DNA from: a virus | Taxonomy: Duplodnaviria > Caudoviricetes | DNA length: 64,000 nt | Virus record (IMG/VR): IMGVR_UViG_3300032323_001487 | Location: 1 to 64,000 of that record | Reading direction: 5' to 3' (one strand) | Shown here: positions 18,141-50,900 of the stretch, in pieces | How the letters are laid out: the number at the start of each line of letters is the position of its first letter | Position numbering within the stretch: the first letter of the stretch is position 1 | Made by a program: the position numbers and the translations under genes | The notes under the pieces: model-generated | What the model was told of the DNA's origin: nothing | The model's database searches: none | The model's input: only the letters and a program-made list of their open reading frames with translations

Positions 18141-18882
18141 CGTCGAGCGTTTTGTTGCACAAGCCCTAAGTTATAACGGATACACCGCGAGCGCGGGCCG
18201 TATCAATATCTTCGGCGAGCGCCTTGGTATGAACGGCTTGCCTTGGGACGGTATCTTTATTGACGTCGTGGCCCGCGAAGTCGGCGTGTCCTTACCGTCT
18301 CACATTTATCCGCCCGTCGCGCTCGCGGAATACATGGGGTCGGGACTTTTCCGTGCGAAGCCTCGACGGGGAGACATTGTGTTCTTCGCGACGTCTGAGG
18401 TGATGGACTTCGGCTCGCCTCACGTTGGTATAGTAACGGATGCCTCACGGCACGCGATAGACGGAACGTTCACGACGGTGGAGGCTATGGTCGGAAACGG
18501 CAAGCCTAAGAGTCCGCAAAATGGAGACGGAGTGTATGTTCGCGTCCGTCACCAAACGGAGGTCATCGGATATGCCCGTCCACGTTTTATTTCTTTAGCA
18601 GAACGGATGACCAAAGCGGGAGATGTTCCAACGGTTGTTCCTGCTCAGTTGCGTAACGGCTTGCGTCATAAGAACGTCGAGGTGGTTCAACTCGCGCTCG
18701 CTGGATTGTTCACGGACGTTCGCGGTTTGCCACGGGGACACTTCGATACACGGACTCGACTTGCTTACGCCAGATTCCAACGGAGCATCGGATATCCGCC
18801 TTCGCGTGCCACAGGTGAGGTTGACCTCGCATCCCTGCAACGGCTTGCCGAGATGACGGGTTTGTTCACCGCGAGCGCGTAG
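18106..18882 (+). CDS. CHAP/amidase-like cell-wall hydrolase with a peptidoglycan-binding domain
   Basis: PRRGDIVFF, HVGIV, IGYARP; C-terminal V..VQ.AL...FQRSIG. The usual PWC reads PWD, so the catalytic Cys appears absent. Confidence 0.7.
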   Translation: MSLFQKPNPTSNVERFVAQALSYNGYTASAGRINIFGERLGMNGLPWDGIFIDVVAREVGVSLPSHIYPPVALAEYMGSGLFRAKPRRGDIVFFATSEVMDFGSPHVGIVTDASRHAIDGTFTTVEAMVGNGKPKSPQNGDGVYVRVRHQTEVIGYARPRFISLAERMTKAGDVPTVVPAQLRNGLRHKNVEVVQLALAGLFTDVRGLPRGHFDTRTRLAYARFQRSIGYPPSRATGEVDLASLQRLAEMTGLFTASA

Positions 18883-19245
18883 GTAACGAAATGATAACGG
18901 CTTACGATTTAATCTTGACAAACCGGGAAAAGTCACTTTAAAATGTCTCCGACATTTTAAAGCAAATTTCGATACACTTCCCTCTACAGGCCAGTGTTTA
19001 GGCGGGGGTCGATTTTCCCCCTTTTATTTCATACGGTAAGCAACTGCGAGGCCCGCCTTCGAAAAGGGGTCCCCATTTTTCCAAGCGGCGAGCCAGGTTT
19101 CCCCCCAGGGGGAAGCCGCGTTATTTCATAACGGCAAGCCATGACGCGAAGCGGGAACGTTGACGGCGAGCGTTTACACGCGCTATGTTTATTTACACAA
19201 CGGCAAGCCAATAACGGCAAGCCGATAACGGAAAGCAGGAGACGG

Positions 19246-19473
19246 ATGGACTTTGACGCGTGGTTGAAGATGGGTTACGAGAACGGGTGGGTAGGACCCG
19301 ACGTGTGCTTTACGCACGACGGCGTGCCTATGACGGCAAGCGAAGAAGCGGAGTTCGAGACGGGTGACCCTTGCGTACACATAGTGCGCCTCTACGAGTC
19401 GACGGATGCCAAACGGAGCGTCGAGGAGAACCACTCACCGAGTGTATGGAGAGCCACCAACAAGGGGTGGTAG
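19246..19473 (+). CDS. Hypothetical protein
   Basis: SD AGGAG before MDFDAWL; C..HDG...C.H pattern. Confidence 0.7.
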   Translation: MDFDAWLKMGYENGWVGPDVCFTHDGVPMTASEEAEFETGDPCVHIVRLYESTDAKRSVEENHSPSVWRATNKGW

Positions 19474-19538
19474 TTTTTCCAAGCGGGAGTTGACGGTCGC
19501 TCGAATCACGTTTCCGGGTTTGTTTTATGATAAAACCC

Positions 19539-19751
19539 ATGAGACACATCGAGGTACATTTAGTCGAGAGTAACGACGACAGAGAGTCATTGAACAAGGC
19601 TGGCTTTGACCTGTTCGAAGTCGAGACCTGCGAGCAATGCTTTGAGGAAGTTGGCGCAGTCGAAGACGCTGAGTTCGTTTCATTTGTTGTTTGTCTAGAC
19701 GAGGAAGATGAGTGGATTGTCTGCGCTGAGTGCGCTGAACCCATCTTGTAA
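19539..19751 (+). CDS. Acidic Zn-finger-like small protein
   Basis: CEQC...CAEC; TATGAT just upstream of the ATG. Confidence 0.65.
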   Translation: MRHIEVHLVESNDDRESLNKAGFDLFEVETCEQCFEEVGAVEDAEFVSFVVCLDEEDEWIVCAECAEPIL

Positions 19752-19769
19752 AGGGGTGCCTGTTTTTCC

Positions 19770-20255
19770 GTGCGAAAACTTTCTGTCTACCAAGACGTCG
19801 AGATTGACCTCGACGCGATTCTGAAATTATCTGAAGACTCTGAGTGGTTTGATGCTCAGATTGGCGATGTTCGCGATTTCTCATTTCGCAGGCTGAAGCA
19901 GTTCCAAGAAATTATTTTTCCGCAAATTAAAAATTACGTCGAAGATTGCTCAGACGAGCCACTCGAGATGGAATCATTTACTTTGATTCGATACACAGAG
20001 GGGCAGTTCTTTATCGAGCACTCTGACGACGACATCGAGGAACTCGAGCGCAAACTCTCCATCGTTATTTATTTGAACGACGATTACGAAGGAGGGGAGA
20101 TTTACTTCAGGAAACAAAACCTGACCATCAAACCCAAAGCCAACTCTCTGGTCGCGTTTCCTTCGACTGACGAATTCGTTCACGAAGCGAAGCCAATCAC
20201 CTCTGGGACAAAATATATAATCACCAGTTTTTGGTATTCGCGCTTGGAAAACTAG
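19770..20255 (+). CDS. 2OG-Fe(II) oxygenase (prolyl-4-hydroxylase-like)
   Basis: RY..GQFF..HSD, SIVIYLNDDYEGGE, HEAKPITSGTKY. Confidence 0.88.
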   Translation: MRKLSVYQDVEIDLDAILKLSEDSEWFDAQIGDVRDFSFRRLKQFQEIIFPQIKNYVEDCSDEPLEMESFTLIRYTEGQFFIEHSDDDIEELERKLSIVIYLNDDYEGGEIYFRKQNLTIKPKANSLVAFPSTDEFVHEAKPITSGTKYIITSFWYSRLEN

Positions 20256-22188: not shown

Positions 22189-22213
22189 ATCTCAGATAGG
22201 AAGGAAATACAAA

Positions 22214-23212
22214 ATGACTGAGACTACTTTTATTGAGAAGGCAGAGCGCCTTCACGCAGATTTGCCAGCAGTTCTTTATGGACTTGCCGGGCAAGCGATA
22301 AACTCAGAGTTGGGAAAAACTCTCGACTCTTACTACGACGACAAAGTAGGTCGCGCTGTTATTCGCAATCGTGGATTAGTGAAAGGCAAAATCATTAGCG
22401 CAGATGCTCTTGTAGGAGAAGACTCTTACGCAAGACCTAATGGCGACAAATACTTTGCTCGCAACTGGGGTTCTAGCGCACATAAGGATGTCGAGGTTCT
22501 TCGCAAGAGTCGCGATGTCAATCAGTTCGTGTTGCTATATGGCGCACCTGGTTGTGGAAAAACCGCGCTCGCGGAAGCCGCGTTTGGTTCAGACCTTTAC
22601 ACAGTTCTAGGTTCTGGCGACACAGAAGTTTCCGACTTGGTTGGTGGCTATGTCCAGACTCCAAGTGGCTCGTTCGAGTGGGTCGATGGTCCTCTCCTTC
22701 GCGCAGCAGAAGAAGGCAAAGTTCTTCTGATTGACGAAGTGGGTCTTATCGACTCGAAGGTTCTGACTGTTGTCTATGGACTTATGGATGGTCGTCGCGA
22801 GTACACAGTTACTGCTAACCCAGAGCGCGGCACAGTCAAGGCGAAGGATGGATTCTTCGTTATCGCTGCGACTAACCCAAACGCACCGGGCGTAGTTCTC
22901 TCAGAGGCTTTGCTATCGCGATTCACTATTCAGGCAGAAATGACTACTGACTGGTCGCTCGCGAAGAAGTTGGGCGTTCCTATGCAAATGGTTACTGCGG
23001 CGCAGAACCTTGCTAAGAAGTTCACCAGCGACGAAGTTTCGTGGGTTCCTCAGATGCGCGAGTTGCTCGCGTTCCGAGACCTGTCGAAAGTATTTGGCAC
23101 CTCGTGGGCTATCGAGAATTTGATAGCCGCCTGCCCTGAGTTAGACAGACCTACTGTGGTCGATGTGCTGACTCGTGTGTATGGCGAGGAGTGCCGCGCA
23201 GCCAGAATCTAG
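22214..23212 (+). CDS. MoxR-family AAA+ ATPase (CbbQ/NirQ/CobS-like)
   Basis: Walker A GAPGCGKT, FEWVDGPL, Walker B LLIDE, ATNP, ALLSRF. Confidence 0.9.
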   Translation: MTETTFIEKAERLHADLPAVLYGLAGQAINSELGKTLDSYYDDKVGRAVIRNRGLVKGKIISADALVGEDSYARPNGDKYFARNWGSSAHKDVEVLRKSRDVNQFVLLYGAPGCGKTALAEAAFGSDLYTVLGSGDTEVSDLVGGYVQTPSGSFEWVDGPLLRAAEEGKVLLIDEVGLIDSKVLTVVYGLMDGRREYTVTANPERGTVKAKDGFFVIAATNPNAPGVVLSEALLSRFTIQAEMTTDWSLAKKLGVPMQMVTAAQNLAKKFTSDEVSWVPQMRELLAFRDLSKVFGTSWAIENLIAACPELDRPTVVDVLTRVYGEECRAARI

Positions 23213-23344: not shown

Positions 23345-25207
23345 ATGGCTCATTACTCACCTAGTATCGAAACTAGAAAATCCACTCCAACTGAGTGGCT
23401 ACGAATTGGCGCACAGATTGGTCAAATCGTAAACAACTGGTCTTACAGAGACGACCTCGTGGTCTATCTAGGAGAAGAGATGTCTGCGCCTTACGCAGCG
23501 CTCTTCAATCCTGCGAGCGCCGAGGTCGAGGTCAACGTGGTTCGAGCATTTGGCTCGTTCGCAAATCCTGCTTTGATTGGCGACCTCACCAAGCGCAAGA
23601 ATCAACTCGAGCACGCATCAGGTTGTGGCTCTGTCTATCACGAGGCTTGCCACGCGCGGTTCACTCGCTGGTCTCTCGCAGACGCTGCTCGTATTTTGAC
23701 TAAGCGCGAGCACGATGCTCTGATGCTTTTGGAAGAAGGTCGCATCGAATCTTTTGGAGTCGCCTCAATCCCGGGCAACAAAATTCTTCTTCGCTCTTCT
23801 GGTATGGAAATCGCGATTGGCGACTTCGACAAAGTTAAGGAGAACCTCACCAGCATCGATAGCGTCGTTCAGTTGTGTGGGCTAATGCTTGCTCGCGTTG
23901 ATGCTGGCGTTTTCACAGAAGAAGATGTCGAGCCTTTGGCAGAAGTTGTTGACTTAGCGATTGGCGCAGACAACGTTGCCAAGTTGCGTTCTATCTGGAT
24001 TGCGTTCCAAGCGCACGACCAGCACACCAACGCTCTACCTCTTTACGACCTTGCTCGCGAGTGGGTCAGGATTGTAGACGAGATTAAGTCAGAGAAGGGC
24101 GAAGAGCCTAGCGATGATGGTTGCTCTTACCCTGGAGCATCAGGTGAGCCGGGCGCATCAAGCGAGCCGGGCGAGCCAAGCGAATCAGGTGAGCCAAGCG
24201 AGAACCCAATTTGGAAAGCAGTCAACAAGGCTCTTGAAGATGCTATCGAAGAAATAAAAGACAACATCCAGATTGACAACCAGACTGCGATTGACAACGC
24301 AATCGAAGACGAAGAGATGCGCGAAGAAGTTCAGGCTCGCAACTCTGAGGCAGAACGTCGTCAAGAAGAGAAGAAGGTTTCTGATGAAGTCTTTGGTCGT
24401 GGCACTGGTCCTAGCGCAGACACTAAGACTCGCTCGAGACTAATCGAGAGTCGCAAGCCAACTAGTTCAGAGCGAGCCTCTGCTGTTCGCGTTGCTCGAC
24501 TACTCGACAAAGCGAAATACCGCGAGCGCGAACAAACTCGTATCAAGAGCGTAGTTCCACCGGGTCGTCTTCGCACGCGAGCAATCGTTCAGGGTCAGGC
24601 TCTCAAGTCGAAGGGTATCAACCAAGAGACAGAGGCGTGGCGTAGAACCCAGCGCAAGCACACAGAAGACCCAACTCTTCACGTGGGCGTGCTGGTAGAC
24701 ATCTCAGGCTCGATGCGTAGCGCGATGAACCCAATGGCGACAACTGCTTGGGTTCTGTCAGAGGCTGGTCGTAGGATTCAGGCTCAGACTTCGATGGTCT
24801 ACTTCGGCAATGGCGTGTTCCCGACTCTCAAGCCGGGACAGCACCTAGACGAAGTGAAGGTCTACTCGGCGACTGACAACACCGAGCGATTCGAGAAGGC
24901 GTTCAAGGCGCTGAACGGTCAGATGAATCTGACTCGCAGTTCGGGCGCTCGTCTGCTCGTGATTGTGTCTGACGGATACTACGACTACGACCAGCGCGAG
25001 GCTGCTAGCAAAGCGGTAGCGGAGTGCGAGAAGGCAGGCGTGGCAGTTATCTGGCTCACCTACGACGAAGGCTCGACGGCTAAGGCGATTCTGCGGAACA
25101 GCAAGAACGCCCGACTGATTCTCGCTCACGGCAAGACATCGGAAGAGGTCGCGCAACTAATCGGTAGCGAGTCTGCCGATGCGCTGACCAAGGTCGGTAG
25201 GAGATAA
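23345..25207 (+). CDS. VWA-domain partner protein (CobT-like) with an N-terminal HExxH
   Basis: HEACH...EEGRIE, acidic linker, MIDAS DISGS...T...SDG. Confidence 0.88.
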   Translation: MAHYSPSIETRKSTPTEWLRIGAQIGQIVNNWSYRDDLVVYLGEEMSAPYAALFNPASAEVEVNVVRAFGSFANPALIGDLTKRKNQLEHASGCGSVYHEACHARFTRWSLADAARILTKREHDALMLLEEGRIESFGVASIPGNKILLRSSGMEIAIGDFDKVKENLTSIDSVVQLCGLMLARVDAGVFTEEDVEPLAEVVDLAIGADNVAKLRSIWIAFQAHDQHTNALPLYDLAREWVRIVDEIKSEKGEEPSDDGCSYPGASGEPGASSEPGEPSESGEPSENPIWKAVNKALEDAIEEIKDNIQIDNQTAIDNAIEDEEMREEVQARNSEAERRQEEKKVSDEVFGRGTGPSADTKTRSRLIESRKPTSSERASAVRVARLLDKAKYREREQTRIKSVVPPGRLRTRAIVQGQALKSKGINQETEAWRRTQRKHTEDPTLHVGVLVDISGSMRSAMNPMATTAWVLSEAGRRIQAQTSMVYFGNGVFPTLKPGQHLDEVKVYSATDNTERFEKAFKALNGQMNLTRSSGARLLVIVSDGYYDYDQREAASKAVAECEKAGVAVIWLTYDEGSTAKAILRNSKNARLILAHGKTSEEVAQLIGSESADALTKVGRR

Positions 25208-25332
25208 CGGCTTGGGGGTAGGGATTGTGTCCCCTACCCCCGACACGCCGATACAATAAAACTTGACACGGCAAGCGATTAGCGCAATAATTAGATACAC
25301 GAGCCAACGGCTCGCCTAACGGAAGGACAAAA

Positions 25333-25758
25333 ATGGGACAGTATCACATCCTCGTAAACCTAGACAAGCGTGAGTGGGTAGACCCTCACGGCTTGGGATT
25401 GGGTGACAAGCAACACGAGCACACGGGAGCGTTCAACGGGTCGCTCTCTGACGCAATGTATCTACTCGTAATGAGTAGCCCGAGACGCGGTGGCGGAGAT
25501 TGGGCAGAGACCGAGGTCTCTGGGCGCTGGGTTGGAGATAGGGTCGTTCTGCTGGGCGACTACACAGAAGACGCAGACATTCCAAATGTCGAGAACGCCA
25601 GCAAACTTTATGTTCAGGTTCAGGAAGAGTTTTTGGACATCACGCCTCAAGTGCGAGACGCGTTCAAAATCGTATTCGAATTGGACTACGAACTCAAGGT
25701 CAGCGATTGGGACTCTGAGTATTCGTATTGGATAGTCAAGGACCCTGAGCGAGTCTAA
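25333..25758 (+). CDS. Hypothetical phage protein
   Basis: MGQYH..VNLDKRE...GRW.GDR...GDY; own promoter and SD. Confidence 0.75.
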   Translation: MGQYHILVNLDKREWVDPHGLGLGDKQHEHTGAFNGSLSDAMYLLVMSSPRRGGGDWAETEVSGRWVGDRVVLLGDYTEDADIPNVENASKLYVQVQEEFLDITPQVRDAFKIVFELDYELKVSDWDSEYSYWIVKDPERV

Positions 25759-25767
25759 AAACTAACG

Positions 25768-25804
25768 AAAGCCACGAGCCTTGAAAAGGGGTTCGTGGTT
25801 TTTT
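25768..25804 (+). terminator. Intrinsic terminator
   Basis: GCCACGAGCC...GGTTCGTGGT followed by a T-tract. Confidence 0.75.
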
Positions 25805-26009
25805 CGTATCTTGAAAAAGGGGTAGCCCTTTTTCCAAGCGAGGTTTTGACTCGCTCGCTCACTCGCTCACTCGCTGTGAAATAAAAATCTGCGTCGTGCT
25901 TCTCCTGAACGACACGCCAAAAAAAGTTCTATAAATAACTTGACTTAATGTCAGGGGTGTGTTTTACTCTATTTACATCAAAGTTCTTTGGAAGGAGAAC
26001 AAACAAAAA

Positions 26010-26417
26010 ATGGCAAATTACTACGAGACAGCAAGAAGCAACTATTTCTTCGTAAAAGATGTAGACGCTTTCAAAGCAGAACTAGATGGGTCTGGTCTTA
26101 ATGTCGAGACTCGCAACATTGGAGAACTAACTCAGGTTGGTCTATTCGCAGACGACTCTCAATCAGCGTCTTTCTTCGAGAAGTATGACCAAGAGACCTT
26201 CGAGTCAGAAGAGTTGGATTGGACAGGTATCTTCAAGCGACACCTAGTTGACAACCAAGTCGCAATCATTATGGGCGCTGGCGCTGAGAAACTTCGCTAC
26301 ATAAATGGTTGGGCTGAGGCTTACAACAACAAAGGTGAGAAGAGGGTAATTGGCTTGAGCGACATCTACAAACTAGCAGAGGAACTTGGCTCTGAAATTA
26401 CCAGAGCCGAATACTAA
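26010..26417 (+). CDS. Hypothetical early protein
   Basis: SD GGAAGGAG; MANYY...RSNYF.VKD. Confidence 0.75.
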   Translation: MANYYETARSNYFFVKDVDAFKAELDGSGLNVETRNIGELTQVGLFADDSQSASFFEKYDQETFESEELDWTGIFKRHLVDNQVAIIMGAGAEKLRYINGWAEAYNNKGEKRVIGLSDIYKLAEELGSEITRAEY

Positions 26418-26500
26418 AAAATAATTTGGGAAAGGGCTTGACAAATGTCAGCCCTGACCCTTATTATAGAAACATAAAGTTCTGGAAGGAGAACAAACAA

Positions 26501-26701
26501 ATGCCAAGATTTCGAATTGGATACAGCGAAGAGTCGTATGGCTGGTATTACTTCGACGCTGACAGCGCTGAAAAAGCACAGGAACTAATCGAGTTGGTCG
26601 AAGAGGGCGAACTTGACGCAGACGACCTACCTGCTTTCTACAAGAAAGAAAATGGTGGTCAGCACGAGTGGATTAACGACCTAGAGGAGTTGGACAACTA
26701 A
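26501..26701 (+). CDS. Small acidic hypothetical protein
   Basis: Leader nearly identical to that of the 26010 gene (GGAAGGAGAACAAACAAA). Confidence 0.7.
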   Translation: MPRFRIGYSEESYGWYYFDADSAEKAQELIELVEEGELDADDLPAFYKKENGGQHEWINDLEELDN

Positions 26702-26955
26702 TGGCTGAGTGCGCTTGCGAATACTGCGAGTCTCCAGACAAGCACAACATTTACGCTGAAGGACTCTGCCAAGAGTGCTACGAAGAGTGTCGAGAGGAAA
26801 AACAACTAATGACAGAAATCAACAAGTGCGACTTGTGCCTAGAGGTCTCAACTGAGGCTCTAGTCAAGTTCGTGAAACTAGACATCTGCGCTGAGTGCGC
26901 CGAGAAAATTGACGAACAGCACGAGCGTCGTATGCGCTATCTAGACCAACTCTAA
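26701..26955 (+). CDS. Cys-rich small protein
   Basis: Four CxxC pairs; coupled start. Confidence 0.65.
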   Translation: MAECACEYCESPDKHNIYAEGLCQECYEECREEKQLMTEINKCDLCLEVSTEALVKFVKLDICAECAEKIDEQHERRMRYLDQL

Positions 26956-26972
26956 AAAAGGAAAATAAGCAA

Positions 26973-27242
26973 ATGGAAAAAATCACAGTAAATCTAAAAA
27001 GCGAGGCGTTCGCCTCAATAGACCAACTCATTTCGACTTGGGACAACACCTTCTTGTATCGCCTAACTTGGACAGACAATGTGGCGAACACTTGGGAAGA
27101 GTATTACCCAACTTTGCCTATCGCTCTTGTTCGACTTTCGGCGCTCGCAGAGTGCGTGGATTTCCCAGACAAGTCGTTCAGGGCAGAGCCAGCGAAGTTC
27201 ATTACTTCTGCTCAGGAGTTCCTAGACGAGCAGGTGGCGTAA
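26973..27242 (+). CDS. Hypothetical protein
   Basis: SD AAGGA. Confidence 0.7.
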   Translation: MEKITVNLKSEAFASIDQLISTWDNTFLYRLTWTDNVANTWEEYYPTLPIALVRLSALAECVDFPDKSFRAEPAKFITSAQEFLDEQVA

Positions 27243-27472
27243 TGACAGTTCAAAAACTAATTGACCTGCTGAAACTCTCAGACCCAAACGAGCCAATCGT
27301 GTTTCAGTTTTTGCTACACGAACATGTAGAACTCGACTACTCAGCAGAGGAGTTTGAAGCAATCGCTGACCACCTAGAAGACAGCGACTCATTTGGCGAC
27401 GACACAGCACGAGTGCTAAAAGATTGGCTGGCTCGTGCGAACGAAGTTCTCGAAGAAGAGGGGTTGATGTAA
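27242..27472 (+). CDS. Hypothetical protein
   Basis: TAATG coupling, MTVQKLIDLL. Confidence 0.7.
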   Translation: MTVQKLIDLLKLSDPNEPIVFQFLLHEHVELDYSAEEFEAIADHLEDSDSFGDDTARVLKDWLARANEVLEEEGLM

Positions 27473-27505
27473 AATAAAAACACACAAAAGAAAGTTGAGG
27501 CTCTT

Positions 27506-27724
27506 ATGACTCAGTATCAGGTAGTCGTTCCTGTTTCGTTTCTCGTCGAAGCAAACAGCGACGCTGAGGCAAAGCGAATTGCCACAGGACTAATTCACGA
27601 ACACATTAATGGAAACAAGTTAGAGGCAGAGTTTATTGAGGAAACTTTTGGCAAGCAAGAAAAGCCAAACTTCTCTGTTCAGGACTTGGAAGCCATTGAG
27701 TGTTCCGCACTTGACAACGAATAA
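27506..27724 (+). CDS. Hypothetical protein
   Basis: SD GAGG; VEA.S..EA motif common in small phage proteins. Confidence 0.65.
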   Translation: MTQYQVVVPVSFLVEANSDAEAKRIATGLIHEHINGNKLEAEFIEETFGKQEKPNFSVQDLEAIECSALDNE

Positions 27725-27746
27725 ATAAATCATTACCATTGAGGTA

Positions 27747-28157
27747 ATGTCAAAAACAAAAAAGGACAAAATGACAACTATGACAAAAGTTCTACAAGAC
27801 TCAGCGTTCTACACGAACGAAGCAGGCACAGAGGTTGTATGGGACAACGACCCTAACAAGCGTTTCTATGTCGTGCGTGCTGGCGAAATGCGTATCCACG
27901 CAACCAAAGATGGACACACAGAGGTTATTCGCTACACAGACCAACTACGAGACTTTGGCATTACAGATGATGACGCGCTCGCGGTTTGGTCTGCTAAAGA
28001 CGAAGAAGTATTTTCTTGGGTGAACAACTCTTGGTTCGAGGTCTACGACGCAAATGACTCATACTATTTCTCAGACCCACTCCACTCTTTAGACGAGGCA
28101 GTAGAGTTCGCTCTAGCATTGTCAAAGACTTTTGGCAAAGATGGAGAGGTGGCGTAA
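27747..28157 (+). CDS. Hypothetical protein
   Basis: Own promoter; start may be 27771. Confidence 0.7.
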   Translation: MSKTKKDKMTTMTKVLQDSAFYTNEAGTEVVWDNDPNKRFYVVRAGEMRIHATKDGHTEVIRYTDQLRDFGITDDDALAVWSAKDEEVFSWVNNSWFEVYDANDSYYFSDPLHSLDEAVEFALALSKTFGKDGEVA

Positions 28158-28432
28158 TGAAAGTTCGACAAGCAGTTGGCGAGGTAATCCGTGAGGCACG
28201 CCTCGAGCGCAAGATGACTCTTCGAGACCTGTCGTCAGTTTCTAGCGTCGCCCTTGGATACCTGAGCGAACTCGAGCGTGGACAGAAAGAGGCTTCATCA
28301 GAAATCCTCGACAGCGTGGCACTCGGCTTGGGTATCTCACTTTCCGAATTAGTGGTTCAGACGGGTTATAGAATAATGTTGAACGAACCCGCCAACGAGC
28401 CTGAGAGACTCTTAGAGTTCGCACGGGTCTAA
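28157..28432 (+). CDS. XRE-family HTH regulator, ClgR-like
   Basis: TLRDLS....VALGYLSELERGQKEASSEIL closely resembles actinobacterial ClgR. Confidence 0.8.
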   Translation: MKVRQAVGEVIREARLERKMTLRDLSSVSSVALGYLSELERGQKEASSEILDSVALGLGISLSELVVQTGYRIMLNEPANEPERLLEFARV

Positions 28433-28447
28433 CTAGTTAGGAACACA

Positions 28448-28627
28448 ATGGGTGCTTTAGAGACGCTCTGGAAACTTGCTGACGATTTTGAAATCAAACC
28501 CGAACGGCTCGCCGAGAGTGCGGAACTGTCCGCTATGATTTCGAAGAACACCGCCTACGCCGAGTTATCGGCTTGGGTAAAGAAGAACCTTGGTAGTTTC
28601 AAGACCGCCAAGAAATCTTCTAAATAA
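28448..28627 (+). CDS. Hypothetical protein (59 aa, below the ORF track cutoff)
   Basis: MGALETLWKLADDF...; SD AGGA. Confidence 0.6.
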   Translation: MGALETLWKLADDFEIKPERLAESAELSAMISKNTAYAELSAWVKKNLGSFKTAKKSSK

Positions 28628-28659
28628 ACTTGACACGGCTAGGCTTATCGGCTAGCCTT

Positions 28660-28782
28660 GGAGAACAACGGGCGTAGGTTCACCCCCCTCGAACCTACGG
28701 CTCGTGCCTGATGGGTTTATTGCTTTTCCCATCACGGCTCGCCCCCTAACTGCTTCCCCCAGCGGTTAGGGGGTTTTCCTTT
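28660..28782 (+). ncRNA. Candidate three-hairpin sRNA with pyrimidine-rich loops
   Basis: Promoter TTGACA...TAGCCT, then hairpins with loops ACCCCCCTC, TTTATTGCTTTT and TTCCCCC; the last is followed by a U-tract. Confidence 0.6.
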
Positions 28783-28890
28783 GACGGCTCGCCCTTACAC
28801 GCTATGCGTGTCGCCCGTAGCGCTTGACGGATAGCCCTGAGCGTGTATAATGGTAGGACAGCCAACGGAGACGCAACGGAAGGAGTTGTA

Positions 28891-29118
28891 ATGGCAAGGA
28901 AGAAGAAGCCAGCACTCGACCAAGCGAACGAAGCACGACGCAAGGCTGAGGCGAAAGCCTTGGCAGAGATACTGCGAGAGCGAGCGAGGTCGAACGCAAG
29001 TGGCGTTCACGAGGACAAGCGAACAAAGCGTTTGCGAACTCGTGAGGCGAAGACGAGGGAAGCCCTGAGAGATTTTGACTCAGGGCTTTTTTCGTATCGA
29101 GCGAAGCGAGGGGTCTAG
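28891..29118 (+). CDS. Small highly basic protein with an internal terminator
   Basis: Promoter TTGACG-16-TATAAT, SD GGAAGGAG, 75 aa rich in Arg/Lys. Confidence 0.75.
   Translation: MARKKKPALDQANEARRKAEAKALAEILRERARSNASGVHEDKRTKRLRTREAKTREALRDFDSGLFSYRAKRGV
29060..29092 (+). terminator. Intrinsic terminator inside the 28891 ORF
   Basis: AGCCCTGAG-AGATTTTGA-CTCAGGGCT-TTTTT; the stop codon is at 29116-29118. Confidence 0.75.
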
Positions 29119-29167
29119 GTTTTCGCTTGGAAAAAGAGAGACCCCTTTACGCTCGACCGGGAAAAGA

Positions 29168-29196
29168 AAAATCCCCAACTTTCGTTGGGGACTTTC
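29168..29196 (-). terminator. Terminator for the minus-strand gene, possibly bidirectional
   Basis: TCCCCAAC-TTTC-GTTGGGGA with an A-tract on the left. Confidence 0.7.
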
Positions 29197-29211
29197 CTGA
29201 TTGGGTTTTGA

Positions 29212-29394
29212 CTACTCGACGATTGAAGTCGTGTTCAGCCAAACGCTCGCTGAACCAGAGTTGTCGTTCGAGTTGAAAGTCGAGACGAACTCAACTGCTT
29301 TGTCCCAAGCACCAACACCAAAGTTGATGTAGAACTTTGAGCCATTGTCCAACTGAACTAGGACACGAACCCCCTGCGATACTGCTTTTTCCAT
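29212..29394 (-). CDS. Hypothetical protein
   Basis: MEKAVSQG... with SD CAGGAG and a minus-strand TTGACA near 29469. Confidence 0.65.
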   Translation of the reverse strand: MEKAVSQGVRVLVQLDNGSKFYINFGVGAWDKAVEFVSTFNSNDNSGSASVWLNTTSIVE

Positions 29395-29587
29395 TTTCCA
29401 CTCCTGAGAGATAGAACCAACGCCAAACGATTGTTTGACCTTTTCAGGATAGGGTCTCATAAATCTTTTGTCAAGCGACACGCCAAAAAACTTTTTTGAA
29501 AATGTGCTTGACAAATGTCGCAGGTGTCCCCTATCCTGACAGAGTGAAGTTCGATTGGCTTCACGAAAAAAGCAAAAGGAGTTTCAA

Positions 29588-30034
29588 ATGACCAACCCAG
29601 CAAGCGAGCGACAGGTCGCATACATCAACACGCTAATCGCAGAGCGTGGCTACCCAGAGCCTATTGACCTAGCAACCTTGACATCAAGAACTGCCAGCGA
29701 ACTAATCTCGAAGTTGATGGCTATGCCAAAAATTAGTCGTGGGGCTGACAAGGCTTTGTCTCAGGGTATGTATCACCTAGCAGGCGACATCTATCGCTTG
29801 AAGGAGAGTCGCCAGACAGGTCGCCTTTACGCCACTCGCCTGACCATTGACCACAAGTTCGAGTATGCTCCGGGGATTGCCTATCGCCTAACCAGCGAAG
29901 ACAAGATGACCTTAGAGCAGGCAAAGGCTTATGGGGTCGAGACAGGGTTCTGCTGTGTCTGTGGGGCGTTCCTAACTGACGAGCGTTCTGTTCGTGATGG
30001 CATTGGCCCGGTCTGCGCCAAAAAGTATTTTTAG
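29588..30034 (+). CDS. DUF6011-like Zn-finger protein
   Basis: CCVCGAFLTDERSVRDGIGPVC; N-terminal ASERQVAYI module. Confidence 0.75.
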   Translation: MTNPASERQVAYINTLIAERGYPEPIDLATLTSRTASELISKLMAMPKISRGADKALSQGMYHLAGDIYRLKESRQTGRLYATRLTIDHKFEYAPGIAYRLTSEDKMTLEQAKAYGVETGFCCVCGAFLTDERSVRDGIGPVCAKKYF

Positions 30035-30166
30035 GCGTTATAAATCTGTTATAAAAAAGTTTATAAATGAACTTGACAAGACAGACCATAGCGACAATAC
30101 TTAGACCATAACTGAATAACAACTGAATACAAAAAACTCAATCATCAAAAATCCAAGAAGGACATA

Positions 30167-30466
30167 ATGAAAGAAATCAAGAAAGTTGAACTCGGTTTCA
30201 ACGCAGACGCACGACAGGCACTCGCAGAGTTGCTTGAAGCCAAGGCAGTTATCGCTCAGGCTACCGCCAAGAAGGAAGCCGCCCAGAAGGTTCTGTTTGA
30301 CCTAGTAGGCGACCACAACCAAGCGACCTTCGGTGGCGTTCTATCGTTCAAGATTATTGACGGCAAGAACCGCCACGCTGACCTGACAATTCTCGAAGAG
30401 AAGTATCCCGAGATTTTCGCCGAAGTAATCCGCACAACTGAATACAAGCAAATCCGAACCGCCTAA
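30167..30466 (+). CDS. Hypothetical protein
   Basis: Own promoter, SD AAGGA, followed by a terminator. Confidence 0.75.
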   Translation: MKEIKKVELGFNADARQALAELLEAKAVIAQATAKKEAAQKVLFDLVGDHNQATFGGVLSFKIIDGKNRHADLTILEEKYPEIFAEVIRTTEYKQIRTA

Positions 30467-30489
30467 TCCCCCAACGGCGTTCGGTCGGC

Positions 30490-30516
30490 AAGCCCCCAGA
30501 GCAATCTGGGGGTTTT
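30490..30516 (+). terminator. Intrinsic terminator
   Basis: AAGCCCCCAGA-GCAA-TCTGGGGGTTTT. Confidence 0.85.
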
Positions 30517-30523
30517 GTCTTTA

Positions 30524-30961
30524 ACGGCTAGCCCTTGACGGCTCGCCCTATGACCGCCAACGGATAAGACCAACGGCTAGCCCTTGACGGCTCGCCTGAT
30601 ACGGATTGACGGCTCGCCCTATGCCAACGGCTCGCCCTTGACGGACAGCACGCCAGCGGGTCGCTGACGGCTTGCCCTTGACGGCTCGCCCTTGACGGAC
30701 AGACGGACACAGACGGCTCGCCCTATGACCGCTGACGGCTTGCCCGTAGGAAGTCCAACGGCTTGCCCTAAGAGACCCTGACGGGTCGCTAACGGCTTGC
30801 CTATGACGGCTTGCCCTAAACGCCCAACGGGTGAGCGTGTAGAGCCTGACGGGTCGTGTTTTGACGGGTGGGGGAGTGGGAGTCGGGAGAGCCTGACGGA
30901 TAGGTAAAAGGGGGGTGAAGCGATTGACGGGTGGGAAGGGGGAGACGCCGGGGATTGACGG
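30524..30961 (+). repeat. Degenerate direct-repeat array, unit ACGGCTHGCCCTTG (14 bp)
   Basis: About 25 ACGG cores, all on +, most often 14 bp apart; no credible ORF. Confidence 0.85.
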
Positions 30962-31550: not shown

Positions 31551-31809
31551 CCCCAGGCCCTGGACCTGGAACCACCTGGGTGGTATTTCCGCGTGGAAAA
31601 CCAAAGACCCCTTTTTTTATTTTCTATCCCTGGCAGGAAACTTTCTGGGACTCAGCAAAAGAGATAGCAAATGCTAGTAGGCGAGAACTACTACAACGCA
31701 GACGCTGGTCTCTTTGCTCAGGAAGATGTGTTTGGCGAACACAATTCGTGCGAGCACGACCACACTTGCGTATGTGGAAAGGAATTAGGCTAAAAACCTA
31801 AAACCAAGG

Positions 31810-31841
31810 AACGCTCCACCAGAAATGGTGGGGCGTTTTTT
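31810..31841 (+). terminator. Intrinsic terminator
   Basis: AACGCTCCACCA-GAAA-TGGTGGGGCGTTTTTT. Confidence 0.85.
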
Positions 31842-32085
31842 GTATCTTGAATCAAATCCCGCCGTGCGCCAGAGTCAGAAAAAGGGGTAGTGGTTTTTCC
31901 GAGCGCGTCGTCATGGCTTCGCTTCGCTCGCGATTGGTTCGGCGCTCGCTGGTCTTGGGGGTGGGCTTCGCGCTCGCGGAGTTCGACAAGAAATAGGTGC
32001 GCGACACGCCAAAAATAGTTTGCGCGAAAACTTGACAAATGTCAGTGGTCAGTATCATACTTGACTTGTCTAAGAAAGGACAAAG

Positions 32086-36099: not shown

Positions 36100-36333
36100 A
36101 TGCCTGAGAACAAATCAAAGTGCTACTACTGCGATGCCGAAGACTTTAACGACAAAGAGTTGTGTGCCGATACTTACAAGGGCGAGTTAAATCACGCCGA
36201 GCAGAAGTGGTGCGAGTATTGCGAAGAGCAACCTGTCGACAATCAAGATGGAGACAACGACCACTGCGCTCAGTGCTACTACGAGTGGAAAGCCGAAGAG
36301 CGTGGTCGCAACTGGGATTACTACCACGCCTAA
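36100..36333 (+). CDS. Cys-rich small protein
   Basis: Consensus promoter, SD AAGGAG, three CxxC. Confidence 0.7.
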   Translation: MPENKSKCYYCDAEDFNDKELCADTYKGELNHAEQKWCEYCEEQPVDNQDGDNDHCAQCYYEWKAEERGRNWDYYHA

Positions 36334-36416
36334 AAAATCTTTTACGACACGCTTGACAAATGTCTAAAAGTTCATAATAATAGTTATGTAGTCAAACAAA
36401 CTACAAAGGAGAAGAA

Positions 36417-36635
36417 ATGAAGTATGTAATCCGCCGAGCAATCGCGTCAGTAGTTCTATCACCTGTGGTGGTAATCGCTTATGTAATTTTCTATGCCGTT
36501 CTAGTTGGGCTTGGCGCTCAGCCGGGAAACAATGTCGAAGGCGTTATTGCCAATGGCTGGCTTCTAGCCTTCGGAGTTGGAGTGGCTTTCACTTTCTGGA
36601 CTCAGATACAGAGACTAGTCAGTGGGGTGAAGTAA
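36417..36635 (+). CDS. Small membrane protein
   Basis: Two hydrophobic helices; SD AAGGAG. Confidence 0.7.
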   Translation: MKYVIRRAIASVVLSPVVVIAYVIFYAVLVGLGAQPGNNVEGVIANGWLLAFGVGVAFTFWTQIQRLVSGVK

Positions 36636-36738
36636 TGCGGGAGATTATTCTCGCGCTCGCGGTCTTTAACATAATCGCTGGTGCCTACCTATTCGCTTGG
36701 TCAATCAAGCAAATCAAGAAATAGGATAGAATAAAACT

Positions 36739-39184: not shown

Positions 39185-39352
39185 ATGGGCGAATTACTTT
39201 TTGTTCTAGTTATCGGACTAGCAGTTGTTGCCTCGGTTACTTGGCTAGTCGATGGCTACAAGAAAGAACTAAGAGACCGACAAAATCAGAGAGATGTATC
39301 CCCAATGCTGGGAGTCGTCTTACCGAACAAGAAGGACAAGAAAGATGAATAG
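39185..39352 (+). CDS. Small membrane protein
   Basis: SD TAAGGAG; one transmembrane segment. Confidence 0.6.
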   Translation: MGELLFVLVIGLAVVASVTWLVDGYKKELRDRQNQRDVSPMLGVVLPNKKDKKDE

Positions 39353-39521
39353 TTGGATTGTTAGATTGAAGGATGTAGTTTGGACTGCTGTGTTTGCTGT
39401 CGCGCTCGCGGTAGTGGCTATTCTCGTAGCACTGATTGTGCCGAGTGCTATCTCGCTGGTGCTCGCGCTTGGGCTGGCCTCAGTTTCACTCGCTCTACTA
39501 TCTTGGAGAGTTGCTAGATAG
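39345..39521 (+). CDS. Small membrane protein
   Basis: Very hydrophobic 58-aa ORF, overlapping start. Confidence 0.6.
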   Translation: MNSWIVRLKDVVWTAVFAVALAVVAILVALIVPSAISLVLALGLASVSLALLSWRVAR

Positions 39522-40018: not shown

Positions 40019-40564
40019 ATGACAGAATTTCTCAAAAGAAATCAAAAATTACCACCAAACCTAGTTGAACTAGTAGCAACCATCTCAGATATGGAACTTC
40101 GCGATACCTACGTTCGTGCGCTTAGAAGCAAGGGCTGGACTCTACAAAGTATTGCCGAAGCCTGCGATGTATCCCGCGAGCGCGTTCGCCAAATCTGCGA
40201 GATGCCTGAGTCCAAGTTATTTGACTCAGTGGTAGTTCCTAGTCCGCCAGTGAAACAGGCGCGGGAGAAGGTTGTCTACGCGCAACCGACAAAGGAAACC
40301 TTAGACAGGTTGCTGGAACTAAAACCACTTGCTCAACAGGTTCGCTCTCACGCAACTCGTTATCGTGCCGAAGCAGAAGAATACACTCGCCTGCTGAACC
40401 ACGCTCATAAGGTAGAAGGAGTATCGCTATACAACCTAGCCAGACACCTAGGAGTTACCTATCCCGCTATTCGATTCCGACTGACTCGATACGGATATCT
40501 AGACGCTGGTAATGGAACTAGCAAGGTATACAACCCAATCCTTACTAAAAACCGTGCTCTCTAA
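40019..40564 (+). CDS. Double-HTH DNA-binding protein (sigma-70 region 4-like)
   Basis: GWTLQSIAEACDVSRERVRQI and SLYNLARHLGVTYPAIRFRL. Confidence 0.8.
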   Translation: MTEFLKRNQKLPPNLVELVATISDMELRDTYVRALRSKGWTLQSIAEACDVSRERVRQICEMPESKLFDSVVVPSPPVKQAREKVVYAQPTKETLDRLLELKPLAQQVRSHATRYRAEAEEYTRLLNHAHKVEGVSLYNLARHLGVTYPAIRFRLTRYGYLDAGNGTSKVYNPILTKNRAL

Positions 40565-47307: not shown

Positions 47308-47314
47308 GAGCATC

Positions 47315-47899
47315 ATGGAACACCAAGAGCCTAGGGAGTTCATTAACGAGATGATTGAGTCTGGTAATGAACCAGCCATTCCATCTATTTATACTGACAA
47401 GCCTACTTTCTCTATTGGTGACGAGATTCAGTCGCTAGTTGCTTCTGTCAACAGAACTATTCCTATTCGACGTCAGGTCCCTATCTACGATGCTCTAGCC
47501 GTTGCTGGACGCTCGCTGGCTAGGACCGTTAGGGAATTCACTAACCCCAGCAAGCGTGCTTTCGCTGCTCTGCGCGAGGTATCGGACTTTGTGAACACCG
47601 CTGTTAGTGGCAAACCTACTCGCATCGGCATCGAGCACTATGACTTGTTGCCTATCGGTCACCCACTCTCTACTAAAGAGGTAGAGATTTCTGCTCAGGA
47701 TAGGCGAGAGTTTGAGGCAGATTGGTTTGCTGCTGACCCTAGAATTTCTGAAGAATACAGACCTGTTGTTGCTTCGGCTTATTTATCCGCACCAGATAGC
47801 GTAGAAAGAAAATACGCATTGGCTCACTTAGAGGCTTTAGGCTATGAAGACATTCCTATGGAAGTAGTTGTGGCATTACTCGACGACAATGAAATCTAA
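47315..47899 (+). CDS. Hypothetical head-region protein
   Basis: SD AGGAG; DLLP.GHP motif also seen in the 7732-9030 protein (DLLPKMHP). Confidence 0.7.
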   Translation: MEHQEPREFINEMIESGNEPAIPSIYTDKPTFSIGDEIQSLVASVNRTIPIRRQVPIYDALAVAGRSLARTVREFTNPSKRAFAALREVSDFVNTAVSGKPTRIGIEHYDLLPIGHPLSTKEVEISAQDRREFEADWFAADPRISEEYRPVVASAYLSAPDSVERKYALAHLEALGYEDIPMEVVVALLDDNEI

Positions 47900-47902
47900 T
47901 AT

Positions 47903-50900
47903 ATGGCAACCAATCCGTACGCAGGAGAGAACTCGTTTCTTGCTCGTTCTGCAAGAGCGAAACGTCAGCGACGCGACCGCAAGGGTCGCTTTGCTTGGAT
48001 GGGTGGCGCTGCCCGCTTCTTTCTAGCGGTCGAGGGCATCGGCAAGGGTTTGTCTATCCCTAGTCGCTTTGCTGGCTACGACAAAAAATCTGACTCTTTT
48101 GATTTGGAACTTCAGGATGCTGGAGACATTGCCAAGTATGGAAAACTTGTTCGCGTGCCTGCTTCTAAAGTCGAGGGCATCAAGGCTTATATAAATCTTC
48201 CCAGCCTTGGCAAGCGAACCCCCACTAACGTTGAGAGCGACGTTCTTGTTAGCCCAGATGAAATAAAAAAGATTGATGCCCCTTCTGGTTGGAACCTTAC
48301 TAAGACCGAAAATGGCGTCGAGTTTTATGAGTCTGAAGATGGTTGGATAGCAGAAAAGTATTCGAATTTAGATGCATACAAAAAGTCTGGAAAGTCCCCC
48401 AACAAGTTCAAGGGTTCTGGAGTAAACGGCGTTCAGCAGTCTAGCCAGCCTGTTTATCACGTGTATCGCAATCCTAAAGCAGATGCTTTGATGTATGACG
48501 ATTCTGTAAGGTTCGGGGACGTTTCTGTCGCTGCCCAGACTTGGGGAGACACTCAGGCTATGGTCGAAAAGTTGGCTAGAAGAAAGTACGACTCTTTCAA
48601 GTCTAATTTGTCTTCTCTGCGTGCCTTGCCTTCGGCTTGGACTGACTATGACCCCTCTAGCCGTGGCTTGTTTAGTGACACTAAGTGGACGCTTTACAAG
48701 TATGAGTCTGGTAAGACCCCAACCCCCGCAAGAATTATGAAGATGTCTTCAATTCAGCGTAATAATTTATATAAGAAACTTAGCGAAAACCTTCGCAATC
48801 CTGAAGCGACCGCTAATTGGTATAAAGATGACCGAACCCTGAGAACCTCTTTCCAAGTTCGTCAGATGCCTGCGAATAGCGCAGATGCTAGGACGGCTCT
48901 AAATAAGGCTCGCGTTGACGGCAAGAAAATACAGACTTTTGATGGCACCAGTAAGTTGGACCCGAAGGAAGACGTTCTAGAACTTAGTTACTACAAGACA
49001 GATGGCAGTGAACCGATTGCTTACTTCCAAGACTGGGAAGATTTAGAGGATTGGATTGAGGAAGAACGCTTTTCCGCTAAGGAAAAACTTAAAAAAGAGC
49101 GCGAAGCCGCTAAAAATTTAGAGCCTATGGCTCGAAGGGCTGTGGAACTCCCTGATAGAAGCGATAGCGACATAATTCAGGACTTGGAGCCTGTTTCTAC
49201 GCCTGCTATCTCTAAATCTTCCTTCTTCAAGACTGAAAATTCAGACTTTGAGGGTGTTGCTAGTGAAAAAGCAAGCAGTCCTCGCTCTAGTAAATACATC
49301 GATGGTCCAGATGTTGTAAACGAGATAATGAATGAGGCTGCCAAGGTTGCTTTTGAGCAGGGCAGGTTCCCGATTCCTAGAAAAGGAGGTCTCTCCACCT
49401 CCGCAGACGGCAAGTTTTTGGCTCCCGACGTCAAGATTGCGCTACAACGCCAATACAAGCGTGTTTTTGACTCTTTGAAGGAGTCAAATCCAGACTTTAT
49501 GGCGAACTATGACACTTTTGATAAGTTTTGGGCTGATGTAGATAAAAATAGCGTGAGCACTTCTACTCCTTTTGGTGATGGACCAGAAAGTGAGTTCCGT
49601 CAGACTGTAAATAAGGCATACGCTAAAGAAATACTTGGGCTAGATGAAGACGGATTCATTGAAGTTTATCGAAACTCGATTCGTGGTGGTAGTAGAGAAG
49701 GTCAGTCTGAAGTAGACGCGGCCGCAGGATACTCGTCGCTCGACAAAAATATGGCTTGGGACTATCAAAGCCAAGCCACTGGAGATGGACCGTTCTCTGG
49801 ACGATACTCAATCAAGGTAAAGCCTGAAGAGTATGGCGGAATGATTGGTCATAGCGGTGGTTTGGATGAATTTGGTGTAGTTCTGGGTAAGAACGTGACC
49901 AGCATTGATGGGCGTATAGAAAAGCACGGCAAATTAGAGACTTTACCGATTTTAGATGGTGTGACTTTCGGTGCTAGAGGCACTGGCGGTGGACCATACA
50001 GATTTTTCAATGAAGGTTTTAGGTTTATCAAGCCAGCGGGCGAGTTTGATTACACAAATTTTGATGACCTAATTGCTCGCGCTGGTGGGAAAGACAAAGT
50101 TAGAGCCAAGATTTCTGAATTCTGGCCTAATACCACTTTCGACAGAGTAGAAAAAGATTCTTTTGGTTTGAATGGCAGTTCTTTTGAGAAATACATAACA
50201 AAACTTCCTAATGGCAAGGCTATTTTCAATCCAGCGTCCCTGACTTTGACCGAGTCTGGTTTCGGCGCTGAAGGTATTGACCAGAAGGGTGACCGAATTG
50301 ACAATCTTCTAAAGGGAGCATTGGCTTTCCAAGAACTAACTGGTCAAAAAATTATTGAGTGGCGTCGCGGTGGAAATCCAATTACCGATAAGAAGGCTTC
50401 TACAGCCCCAGAGACGACTGCAACCACCGAGAGGGCAGGAATTAGAGACCTATCTGGTTTCAAGCCCACAGGAGGTCCTCTAGGGTCTAATGAAGGTGGC
50501 ACCTACGAAGATGCTAACGGCAACAAAATTTATGTCAAGAAGCCTAGAACAAAACTCCACGGAGAGAATGAAGTCCTCGCTTCGATGCTCTACGAACGTC
50601 TAGGTGTCAACACAGCGAAAATTCGTTTTGGACGTTTAAAAGATGGCACTGAAGTAACTTACTCAGACTGGATTGACTCTAAGAAAGATTTGCGACAAAG
50701 GCTGAGCGACCCAGAGTATGTCCAGAAGATTCAAGAAGGTTTCGGTGTAGATGCTTGGCTTGCCAACTGGGACGTCGCTGGTGGCGCGTTAGACAACATC
50801 GTCACTGACAATAACGGTGACCCTGTTCGCGTTGACCCAGGTGGTGCTCTTTGGTTCCGCGCTCGCGGTGAAGCGAAGGGTGATGCTTTCGGCGAAAAGG

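Follow-up and report, generated by a model that had tools for sequence, protein, structure and literature searches.

Few phage genomes carry dispersed exact words, which are easy to trace, and those that are understood (stoperators, Chi, uptake sequences, nick sites) have each uncovered a dedicated machine. The first 64,000 nucleotides of the viral contig IMGVR_UViG_3300032323_001487 (this stretch is hereafter the window; the contig has 77,230 bases) raise the question of what might use one more such word, the 11-mer CGCGCTCGCGG, which recurs there in genes and spacers alike. By its annotation the contig is that of a DSL-LC01-like large freshwater actinophage. An earlier note on this DNA had read the word as palindromic and as the binding site of a dimeric protein, such as a parS/matS-like organiser or an intragenic roadblock. 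We conclude that the 11-mer is almost certainly a selected recognition site, rather than a product of chance or codon usage, because it is present in 13 copies over the early half of the phage, is kept in close relatives and recurs in several distant cousins.

Results

An over-represented, asymmetric 11-mer

All 13 exact copies reported in the earlier note were recovered in place, nine on the plus strand and four on the minus. In 100 dinucleotide-preserving shuffles the mean was 0.02 copies and the maximum 1, so the excess is indeed far above chance. The 11-mer is the commonest in the contig; the rest of the contig (~13 kb) contains no copy (reversed control word, 1). One-mismatch variants number only four, the near-copy at 21574 already noticed, which reads GGCGCTCGCGG, and three others at 18693, 32338 and 56883.

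Codon usage does not account for this excess. Synonymous-codon shuffling of 91 greedily called open reading frames (ORFs) left 2.23 copies on average and at most 4 in 500 shuffles; two copies lie outside the ORFs and stay unshuffled every time, so that the in-ORF comparison becomes 11 observed against 0.23 expected. The minus-strand ORF 31790-32038, counted among the 91, is probably spurious, and the copy at 31969 is therefore better taken as intergenic; 10-11 of the 13 window copies are thus within ORFs. These are read in varying frames, as had been claimed: as xALAx five times, RARG once, TASA twice and RER two or three times. The dinucleotide- and codon-preserving shuffles together rule out chance and codon usage as the source of the word, and the unrelated flanks of the 13 copies rule out its being a piece of a longer repeat.

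The description of the 11-mer as palindromic needs correction. Its arms, CGCG and CGCG, form a dyad, yet the centre is CT/AG in 13 of the 14 matches to CGCGNNCGCG in the contig, and the 3' G has no fixed partner, the base before the 11-mer being C in four copies, T in six and A in three. The extension by C at 22563, 35118 and 50857 (sites starting at 22564, 35119 and 50858) was rightly seen; C also precedes the site at 18185. The word is a quasi-dyad, asymmetric, with a fixed CT centre. Of the 25 occurrences of its 8-mer core, GCGCTCGC, in the contig, 24 fall between 18,187 and 50,859; there are three in 102 kb of the relative G002 and none in another, G005. The 12 weaker core copies make a graded set beside the exact ones, and several partial copies are also retained in a third relative, G004.

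Literature searches returned only unrelated primers and one table of CRISPR (clustered regularly interspaced short palindromic repeats) repeats for the 11-mer itself, and nothing relevant for a phrase search on over-represented motifs in phage genomes. A different repeat of the window, GGCGAGCCGT, is probably the 25-bp motif from which the earlier note had held the 11-mer to be independent. It has 10 copies, all on the minus strand (25307-30713), six of them within 30538-30713 and partly in 14- and 23-nt tandem units; the two words do not overlap, and by position their independence holds.

Conservation in related phages

The nearest complete relative, G001 (132,624 bases), is 92% identical to the contig across 71 kb of aligned DNA. 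All 13 window sites are intact in it, where 0.64 of the aligned 11-mers of the 18-51 kb region are fully conserved (P 0.003). Column by column, the 11 motif positions are identical in 13 of 13 cases, and positions -2, -1, +1 and +2 in only 11-12 of 13; at 27974 the 11-mer is kept although both immediate flanks have changed. As read from these columns, the conserved footprint is exactly 11 bp. Two contigs of ~95% identity, L434 and L435, keep six of six and five of five covered sites, though they may not be independent of G001.

G004 is more distant (portal 84% identical, alignable DNA 77%). Six sites are in range, and the four alignable ones (4/4) are intact, against a background of 13.6% (P 3e-4); of the remaining two, 39401 has other codons and 36652 is not alignable. 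Around site 40174, the window shows 27 nt with no synonymous change relative to G004 and to G003, a further relative, in proteins that are 57-58% identical; G002 there encodes the same SRER with CGT codons. At all five alignable sites G002, the closest motif-less relative (portal 81%, 102 kb, 0 copies), has other codons or residues. Selection thus acts on the DNA; conservation at synonymous sites, which the earlier note had proposed as a check, is seen for the 11-mer within conserved genes.

Across the family the in-gene sites fall on conserved residues (KYRER, S/T-RER-V, KTAL-V/A-E, G/A-LAE) and arise through codon choice or conservative replacement. The lysin-like protein of a distant relative, G410, is 35% identical to that of the window, and its gene has an antisense TASA copy at a different place; between the two genomes, TASA copies occupy three places of this gene.

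Distribution across the family

Exact copies number 14 in G001, 5 in G004, 1 in G003 and 0 in both G002 and G005. The named phage DSL-LC01 has no exact copy, and 7 one-mismatch copies against 10 for the control word. Two scans of a viral collection for pairs of copies 1-31 or 40-65 nt apart gave 89 and 71 stretches, of which most are on high-GC contigs; five further contigs came from those of low GC. G409 (79 kb) has 13 copies on one strand within 9.9 kb and G408 (136 kb) seven, all plus, within 10.7 kb; G410 (43 kb) has seven plus and two minus copies, G412 (40 kb) four plus copies within 1 kb, and G411 (30 kb) three within 0.3 kb. The control word is absent from each of the five. The portals of G408, G409, G410 and G412 are 67-71% identical to that of the window, and G411 has no related portal. 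Among 33 other family contigs (24-131 kb, from the 34 largest of 80 family loci, out of roughly 600 contigs of the family), 30 have no copy and three have one. Set beside the clusters of G408-G412, this is a patchy distribution: at least four lineages of the family and one other type of phage have the word, and closer kin of the window lack it.

Where it is numerous, the word is confined to one region. In all family genomes for which enough sequence is available, the cluster lies upstream of the two-helix-turn-helix (two-HTH), terL and portal genes and shares their orientation; G408 and G409 have it entirely between a ClgR-like gene and the two-HTH gene. Bonferroni-corrected P values for clustering are 4e-7 for G001 (13 of 14 copies in 32 kb of 132.6), 2e-7 for G408 and 1e-11 for G409. 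The copies also favour the sense strand: by a crude local-ORF rule the sense:antisense counts are 9:4 in the window, 7:0 in G408, 13:0 in G409 and 7:2 in G410, where at least one call is uncertain, and eight of the 14 copies of G001 are sense.

A private replacement motif was sought in the motif-less kin and not found, their top words being other intergenic repeats. Intergenic words private to relatives include TGCGTGGAAAA, 14 times in G002, GTGTATTTATTTTTTCT-like words, about 23 in G410, and TGTATTCGTTTTTTC-like words, about 40 in G439; the window has its own, CGCTTGGAAAA, eight times. They resemble promoter or regulator boxes that each lineage has set after its terminators.

Individual sites, promoters and terminators

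Three copies lie in the gene for a lysin-like protein with CHAP and PG-binding domains (18106-18882). That at 18185-18195 (minus) is antisense, in codons for T-A-S-A, and is kept in G001; that at 18318-18328 (plus) is sense, in V-A-L-A-E, and G410 bears the 11-mer at the equivalent codon position; that at 18869-18879 (minus) takes up the last codons of the gene, 36 nt before the -35 element of a consensus promoter at 18915. The copy at 22564-22574 (plus), just past the Walker A motif of the AAA_5 ATPase gene, encodes K-T-A-L-A-E, for which relatives have K-T-A-L-V-E and other codons. In the VWA-domain gene, the copy at 24520-24530 (minus) falls in K-Y-R-E-R; most relatives write RER with CGT codons. 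That at 27974-27984 (plus), in gene 27747-28157, is 183 nt upstream of the ClgR-like XRE/HTH_3 regulator gene (28157-28432, plus), a gene that borders the motif cluster wherever a family genome has both.

Further right is a non-coding array at 31900-31990 (plus), in which the exact copy 31969-31979 is accompanied by degenerate ones, including GGCGCTCGCTG at 31941, and lies 53 nt upstream of the -35 element at 32032; the equivalent region of G004 has two exact copies 38 nt apart. The copy at 34329-34339 (plus) forms the tip of a strong intrinsic terminator hairpin, bearing out the earlier note, and is 27 nt before the -35 element at 34366. It is kept in G001, G004, L434 and L435, and the G002 terminator at this place has a GAAA tip. 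The copy at 35119-35129 (plus) is 53 nt into gene 35066-35875, in D-T-A-L-A-E, and is kept in G004; G002 has GCC CTA GCG for the same residues. That at 36652-36662 (plus), 17 nt past the stop of ORF 36417-36635, is kept in G001, L434 and L435, and that at 39401-39411 (plus), in V-A-L-A-V of a small hydrophobic ORF (39294-39521), is not kept in G004 or G003. The 181-aa two-HTH gene upstream of terL (40019-40564) contains the copy at 40174-40184 (minus), in the codons for S-R-E-R-V of its sigma-region-4-like helix. An outlier at 50858-50868 (plus) falls in F-R-A-R-G of a 2258-aa gene.

The three promoters just mentioned, after the copies at 18869, 31969 and 34329, are strong consensus promoters. 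In G408 and G409 the copies are mostly intergenic, among other short repeats; there they either follow the T-run of a terminator at a distance of 1-40 nt or precede a -35-like GAAGTTG by 8-9 or ~60 nt. The G411 type has one copy directly beside a TTGACA-N17-TATA promoter and another on each side of a GCGCGAATTCCYAAA repeat array about 2 kb upstream of terS. This array belongs to a 0.7-kb non-coding region (27.4-28.1 kb of G411; L190 7400-8100) with five or six GCGCGAATTCCYAAA repeats and an AT-rich stretch, a region that looks like an origin or packaging site. Local RNA folding is significant only at 34329 (z -5.5), the other 12 window copies having z from +1.0 to -2.4, and a general role of the 11-mer as RNA structure was rejected on these figures.

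The phage and its relatives

The contig was annotated by PHROGs, Pfam and NCBIfam scans and by tblastn with its portal. The best named relative is the metagenome-assembled Actinomycetia phage DSL-LC01, with a portal 72% identical, followed by the Microbacterium phages Pumpernickel and Cece; megablast with 12 kb found no close named phage. CheckV puts the contig at 58% complete. The stretch is found in public freshwater and lake metagenome runs from 14 studies, one of which is possibly the source sample, and the annotated parts show no signs of a temperate lifestyle.

In the window, nucleotide-metabolism and DNA-modification genes (1-17 kb) are followed by the lysin-like gene, the AAA_5/VWA pair and the ClgR-like regulator; then come many small ORFs, the 181-aa two-HTH protein, terL, the portal and giant ORFs. 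G001 has in addition a replication module with Prim-Pol/D5, two WhiB genes and a class Ib ribonucleotide reductase (RNR). The three giant ORFs after the portal encode proteins of 2258 aa (47903-54679), 4479 aa (55119-68558 of the contig) and 1776 aa (contig 69555-74885); the first has NUDIX and RNase T-like domains, and the other two have no Pfam match at E 0.01. Among the modification genes are an N6/N4 DNA methyltransferase (2166-3464), a glycosyltransferase-like ORF (14473-15174), a Mom-like protein (15693-16319) and several 2-oxoglutarate-Fe(II) (2OG-Fe(II)) oxygenases (1437-2066, 19770-20255), a set that suggests modified phage DNA; the methyltransferase and the Mom-like gene are absent from G408. 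Gene order varies between relatives: block 36100-36642 comes before 35086-35835 in G004 and in a lake contig of run X9, and ORF 34824-35087 precedes the two-HTH gene in G004 and G003.

Candidate readers and the host

Genes shared by G001 with G408 only are those for RNR, NrdI, dUTPase, DUF2061 and DUF6065. All-against-all clustering gave two small families restricted to motif-bearing genomes, neither of them universal. One of the two, an 87-aa helical protein (34824-35087) with the C-terminus CDCxCH, here protein B, occurs only in motif-bearing contigs (6/6 loci); its gene adjoins a copy of the 11-mer in the window and in G410, and is ~310 nt from one in G004. Protein B was rejected as a universal reader, being absent from the motif-bearing G408 and G409.

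The HTH_3 protein 28157-28432 matches NCBIfam NF041677 (ClgR) at E 2e-21, below the equivalog cut-off, and its best PDB sequence matches are two ClgR structures; it has homologues in G408, G409, G410, G002 and G439. It is a weak candidate for reading the 11-mer. The ClgR operator of Actinobacteria is described as an imperfect palindrome, CGC-N5-GCG (PMC3613350). Neither the spacing (N4 in the phage word against N5) nor the presence of the protein in motif-less genomes fits such a role, and we rejected it. As a separate matter, a phage ClgR-like regulator might reprogram host Clp or repair genes. The 181-aa protein (40019-40564, plus) has two sigma-region-4-like HTH motifs, is encoded directly upstream of terL and is conserved family-wide, motif-less genomes included; it may be a small subunit of the terminase, or else a late regulator. 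The PHROGs, Pfam and NCBIfam scans found no immunity-repressor family.

The host can be approached through a histone-deacetylase-like gene, whose best genome matches (49%) are metagenome-assembled genomes (MAGs) of a Rhodoluna and of an uncultured member of the Micrococcales. Neither of these two MAGs contains the 11-mer. In a sample of 401 Microbacteriaceae genomes and 301 class-level actinobacterial genomes (eight of the latter flagged as unpublished), counts of the 11-mer track genome size and are typically 1-3 times those of the reversed control, with 0 to ~50 copies in genomes of up to 1.7 Mb. None of the 702 comes near the phage density with a low control count, although the true host may lie outside this sample.

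Likeness to a CRISPR repeat

A common type I-E repeat, GTGTTCCCCGCGCTCGCGGGGATGAACCG, forms a stem-loop whose upper stem and loop match the 11-mer exactly and in sense; the 11-mer is contained in the CRISPR repeat listed for K. setae (Table 1 of PMC4762764). It is also present in arrays on the viral contigs L175 and L127, and the metagenome stretches that have it number at least 122. Among 1639 spacers, from arrays in the stretches listed and from three viral-contig arrays, no match to the phage family goes beyond 19 nt exact or 24 nt with two mismatches. The Rfam CRISPR-DR families gave no match, nor did any Rfam family at gathering score. A solitary CRISPR repeat unit or RNA anti-CRISPR was rejected: only 11 of ~29 nt are shared, the flanks vary and the CRISPR-DR match is lacking.

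Discussion

The data require recognition of an exact, oriented 11-mer, at the level of DNA or coupled to transcription. The reading that we tentatively prefer is that the copies are stoperator-like, dispersed operator and roadblock sites for one sequence-specific DNA-binding protein, phage- or host-encoded, which would recognise the 11-mer in its many copies. The sites span the early/middle gene block just upstream of the packaging genes; those beside promoters or terminators would serve as operators, and at those within genes the bound protein would be a roadblock to RNA polymerase. Both the binding of a protein and its effect on transcription are inferred in this reading. Of the binding-site proposal in the earlier note, the selected recognition site stands and the intragenic roadblock comes close to this reading. 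The dimeric, parS/matS-like organiser is not supported: the word is no palindrome and its CT centre is invariant, its copies are mostly sense (7/7 in G408, 13/13 in G409, 9/13 in the window), and no ParB/MatP-like family appears in PHROGs/Pfam scans of the window and the first 35 kb of G001, the 109-132 kb region of G001 being outside the scan.

Several observations weigh against a stoperator-like set of sites. Most of the window copies are inside ORFs (10-11 of 13) and four are antisense, unlike the stoperators of L5; neighbouring copies are spaced at 25-70 bp with no helical phasing; and an invariant 11-mer is sharper than most transcription-factor sites. As to the protein, tblastn with all G001 ORFs against nine relatives found no gene present in all motif-bearing and no motif-less genomes. 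The ClgR-like and two-HTH proteins also occur in the motif-less G002 and G439, where the ClgR-like homologues have nearly the same recognition helix, and in a comparison with PDB sequences at E up to 1 the 181-aa protein matches no solved repressor, that of the stoperators included. Conservation, too, is not uniform: between G409 and G408, which are 85% identical, five of 12 aligned sites are kept (by script; six by eye, one site being split by an alignment gap), for a background of 0.30 and a P of 0.27. Turnover there is therefore high, and three sites found only in G409 are one or two changes away in G408. Selection is on the presence and density of the word within one genome block more than on fixed positions.

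An alternative, which we regard as unlikely, is that the word is read on the transcribed or non-template strand, whether as a small hairpin, as an ops-like element for pausing or antitermination, or as the target of a protein that binds or cuts RNA. All 20 copies of G408 and G409 are sense, and 11 nt is about the length of non-template strand exposed in a transcription bubble; copies at hairpin tips are found at 34329, at 12471 of G410 (CCCCGCG/CGCGGGG stem) and at the first copy of G004. On the other hand, four of the 13 window copies are antisense; 12 of the 13 local folds are no better than shuffles at a threshold of z below -2.5; the flanks of in-gene copies do not extend the stem, and compensatory pairing is not seen consistently among the partial copies. 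Transcription should be lowest in the stretch from a terminator to the following promoter, which is where several intergenic copies are found, and the Rfam result given above also speaks against an RNA element.

We think it quite unlikely that the word is a Chi-like, polar signal for a host enzyme that processes DNA ends, such that copies upstream of the packaging genes would stop degradation from a phage end. Chi accumulates in phages that have no recombination functions of their own. The 11-mer has the required character: it is exact, asymmetric and indifferent to frame, is written by synonymous changes at pre-existing near-sites, has arisen at different positions of the lysin-like gene in the window and G410 lineages, and always clusters upstream of, and co-oriented with, the terS-like, terL and portal genes. 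The patchy occurrence of one identical word across lineages would also fit a signal imposed by the host. The genomes sampled speak otherwise, both in the excess of only 1-3 times the reversed control in large ones and in the 0 to ~50 copies of the small. Moreover, known Chi sites are shorter, at 5-8 nt, that of E. coli being GCTGGTGG, and the left part of the window mixes orientations.

It is improbable, in our estimation, that the word is the target of a site-specific DNA enzyme, whether one that makes localized single-strand nicks, as in phages T5, tf and phiKMV, or one that modifies a specific motif. Its exactness is enzyme-like, and about a dozen sites per genome on both strands is the situation in phage tf; the phage also has an N6/N4 methyltransferase, a Mom-like protein, 2OG oxygenases and a nuclease, although G408, which bears the motif, lacks the first two. 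Still more doubtful is that the copies are short cassettes, for recombination or as linkers, by which early genes are shuffled, as happens with the PeSL cassettes of T4-type phages. Intergenic copies do lie in the repeat-rich mosaic spacers of a hyperplastic small-ORF region, and the block rearrangement between the window and G004, whose order is shared with the run X9 contig, ends 10-30 nt from the copies at 34329, 35119 and 36652. Cassettes leave unexplained the copies put into conserved genes by point changes, and the ends of window/G001 high-scoring segment pairs are generally not at copies. Mimicry of the type I-E stem-loop, as an RNA or DNA decoy for Cas proteins, has the exact match, the shared sense and the commonness of the repeat (at least 122 metagenome stretches) in its favour, and seems to us very improbable with flanks that cease to resemble the repeat beyond 11 nt, no CRISPR-DR match and none of the 1639 spacers matching the phage family.

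Returning to dispersed operator and roadblock sites, or whatever else the word may be, it is possible, if on the doubtful side, that large freshwater actinophages of one family, probably lytic, use an invariant, oriented 11-mer as an address label for the early block. Its reader would be encoded by no conserved phage gene and would most simply be a host protein; lineages would gain or lose the label as a set, rewriting conserved coding sequence as they do so, in an undescribed stoperator-like or Chi-like system. A word kept through synonymous sites, recurring at ~70% portal identity, absent from closer kin and not tracked by phage genes suggests that a reader exists in freshwater Actinobacteria, abundant and uncultured, or else in the phages of these bacteria. 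The defined 11 bp are a direct bait with which to find it, and if it should be a host protein the 11-mer could mark the hosts of these metagenomic phages.

Comparison with known systems

With the type I-E CRISPR repeat the phage word has in common the same 11 bases of the stem-loop in the same sense, and differs in sharing this core only, with no arrays and no spacers against the phage family. The ClgR operator has similar CGC/GCG half-sites, and a ClgR-like gene lies beside the cluster; the phage spacer is an invariant 4 nt, however, and reading the word in the N5 register gives CGG as the second half. Chi sites are, like the 11-mer, exact, asymmetric, orientation-dependent words in coding sequence of any frame, but they are defined by abundance and skew in the host chromosome, not seen in the sampled actinobacterial genomes, and the phage word is longer. 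The ops element with RfaH and the C1 operators of phage P1 are further systems for comparison.

The stoperators of cluster A mycobacteriophages (L5 gp71, the TipsytheTRex repressor) are described as more than 20 copies of an asymmetric 13-mer that point in the direction of transcription; their repressor has two domains, binds as a monomer and stops initiation as well as elongation (PMC9283540). The phage word is 11 bp rather than 13, GC-rich and a quasi-dyad, and its 13-14 copies occupy about a quarter of the genome, whereas stoperators are spread throughout. Most window copies are in ORFs; sites in promoters or short intergenic spaces, as stoperators have, largely prevail in G408 and G409. 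The scans found no gp71-type repressor (~183 aa, N-terminal HTH and stoperator domain), the annotated parts lack temperate signs, and the identical word occurs in lineages separated by motif-less ones. With copies mostly in ORFs, no gp71-like repressor and confinement to one region, the word is not a member of the cluster A stoperator family. The two have points in common: both belong to actinobacteriophages, and each seems to be a single short, asymmetric word repeated almost unchanged over tens of kb, at promoters, between genes or within them, with a tendency to follow transcription that for the phage word is complete in G408 and G409 and partial in the window (9/13) and G001 (8/14).

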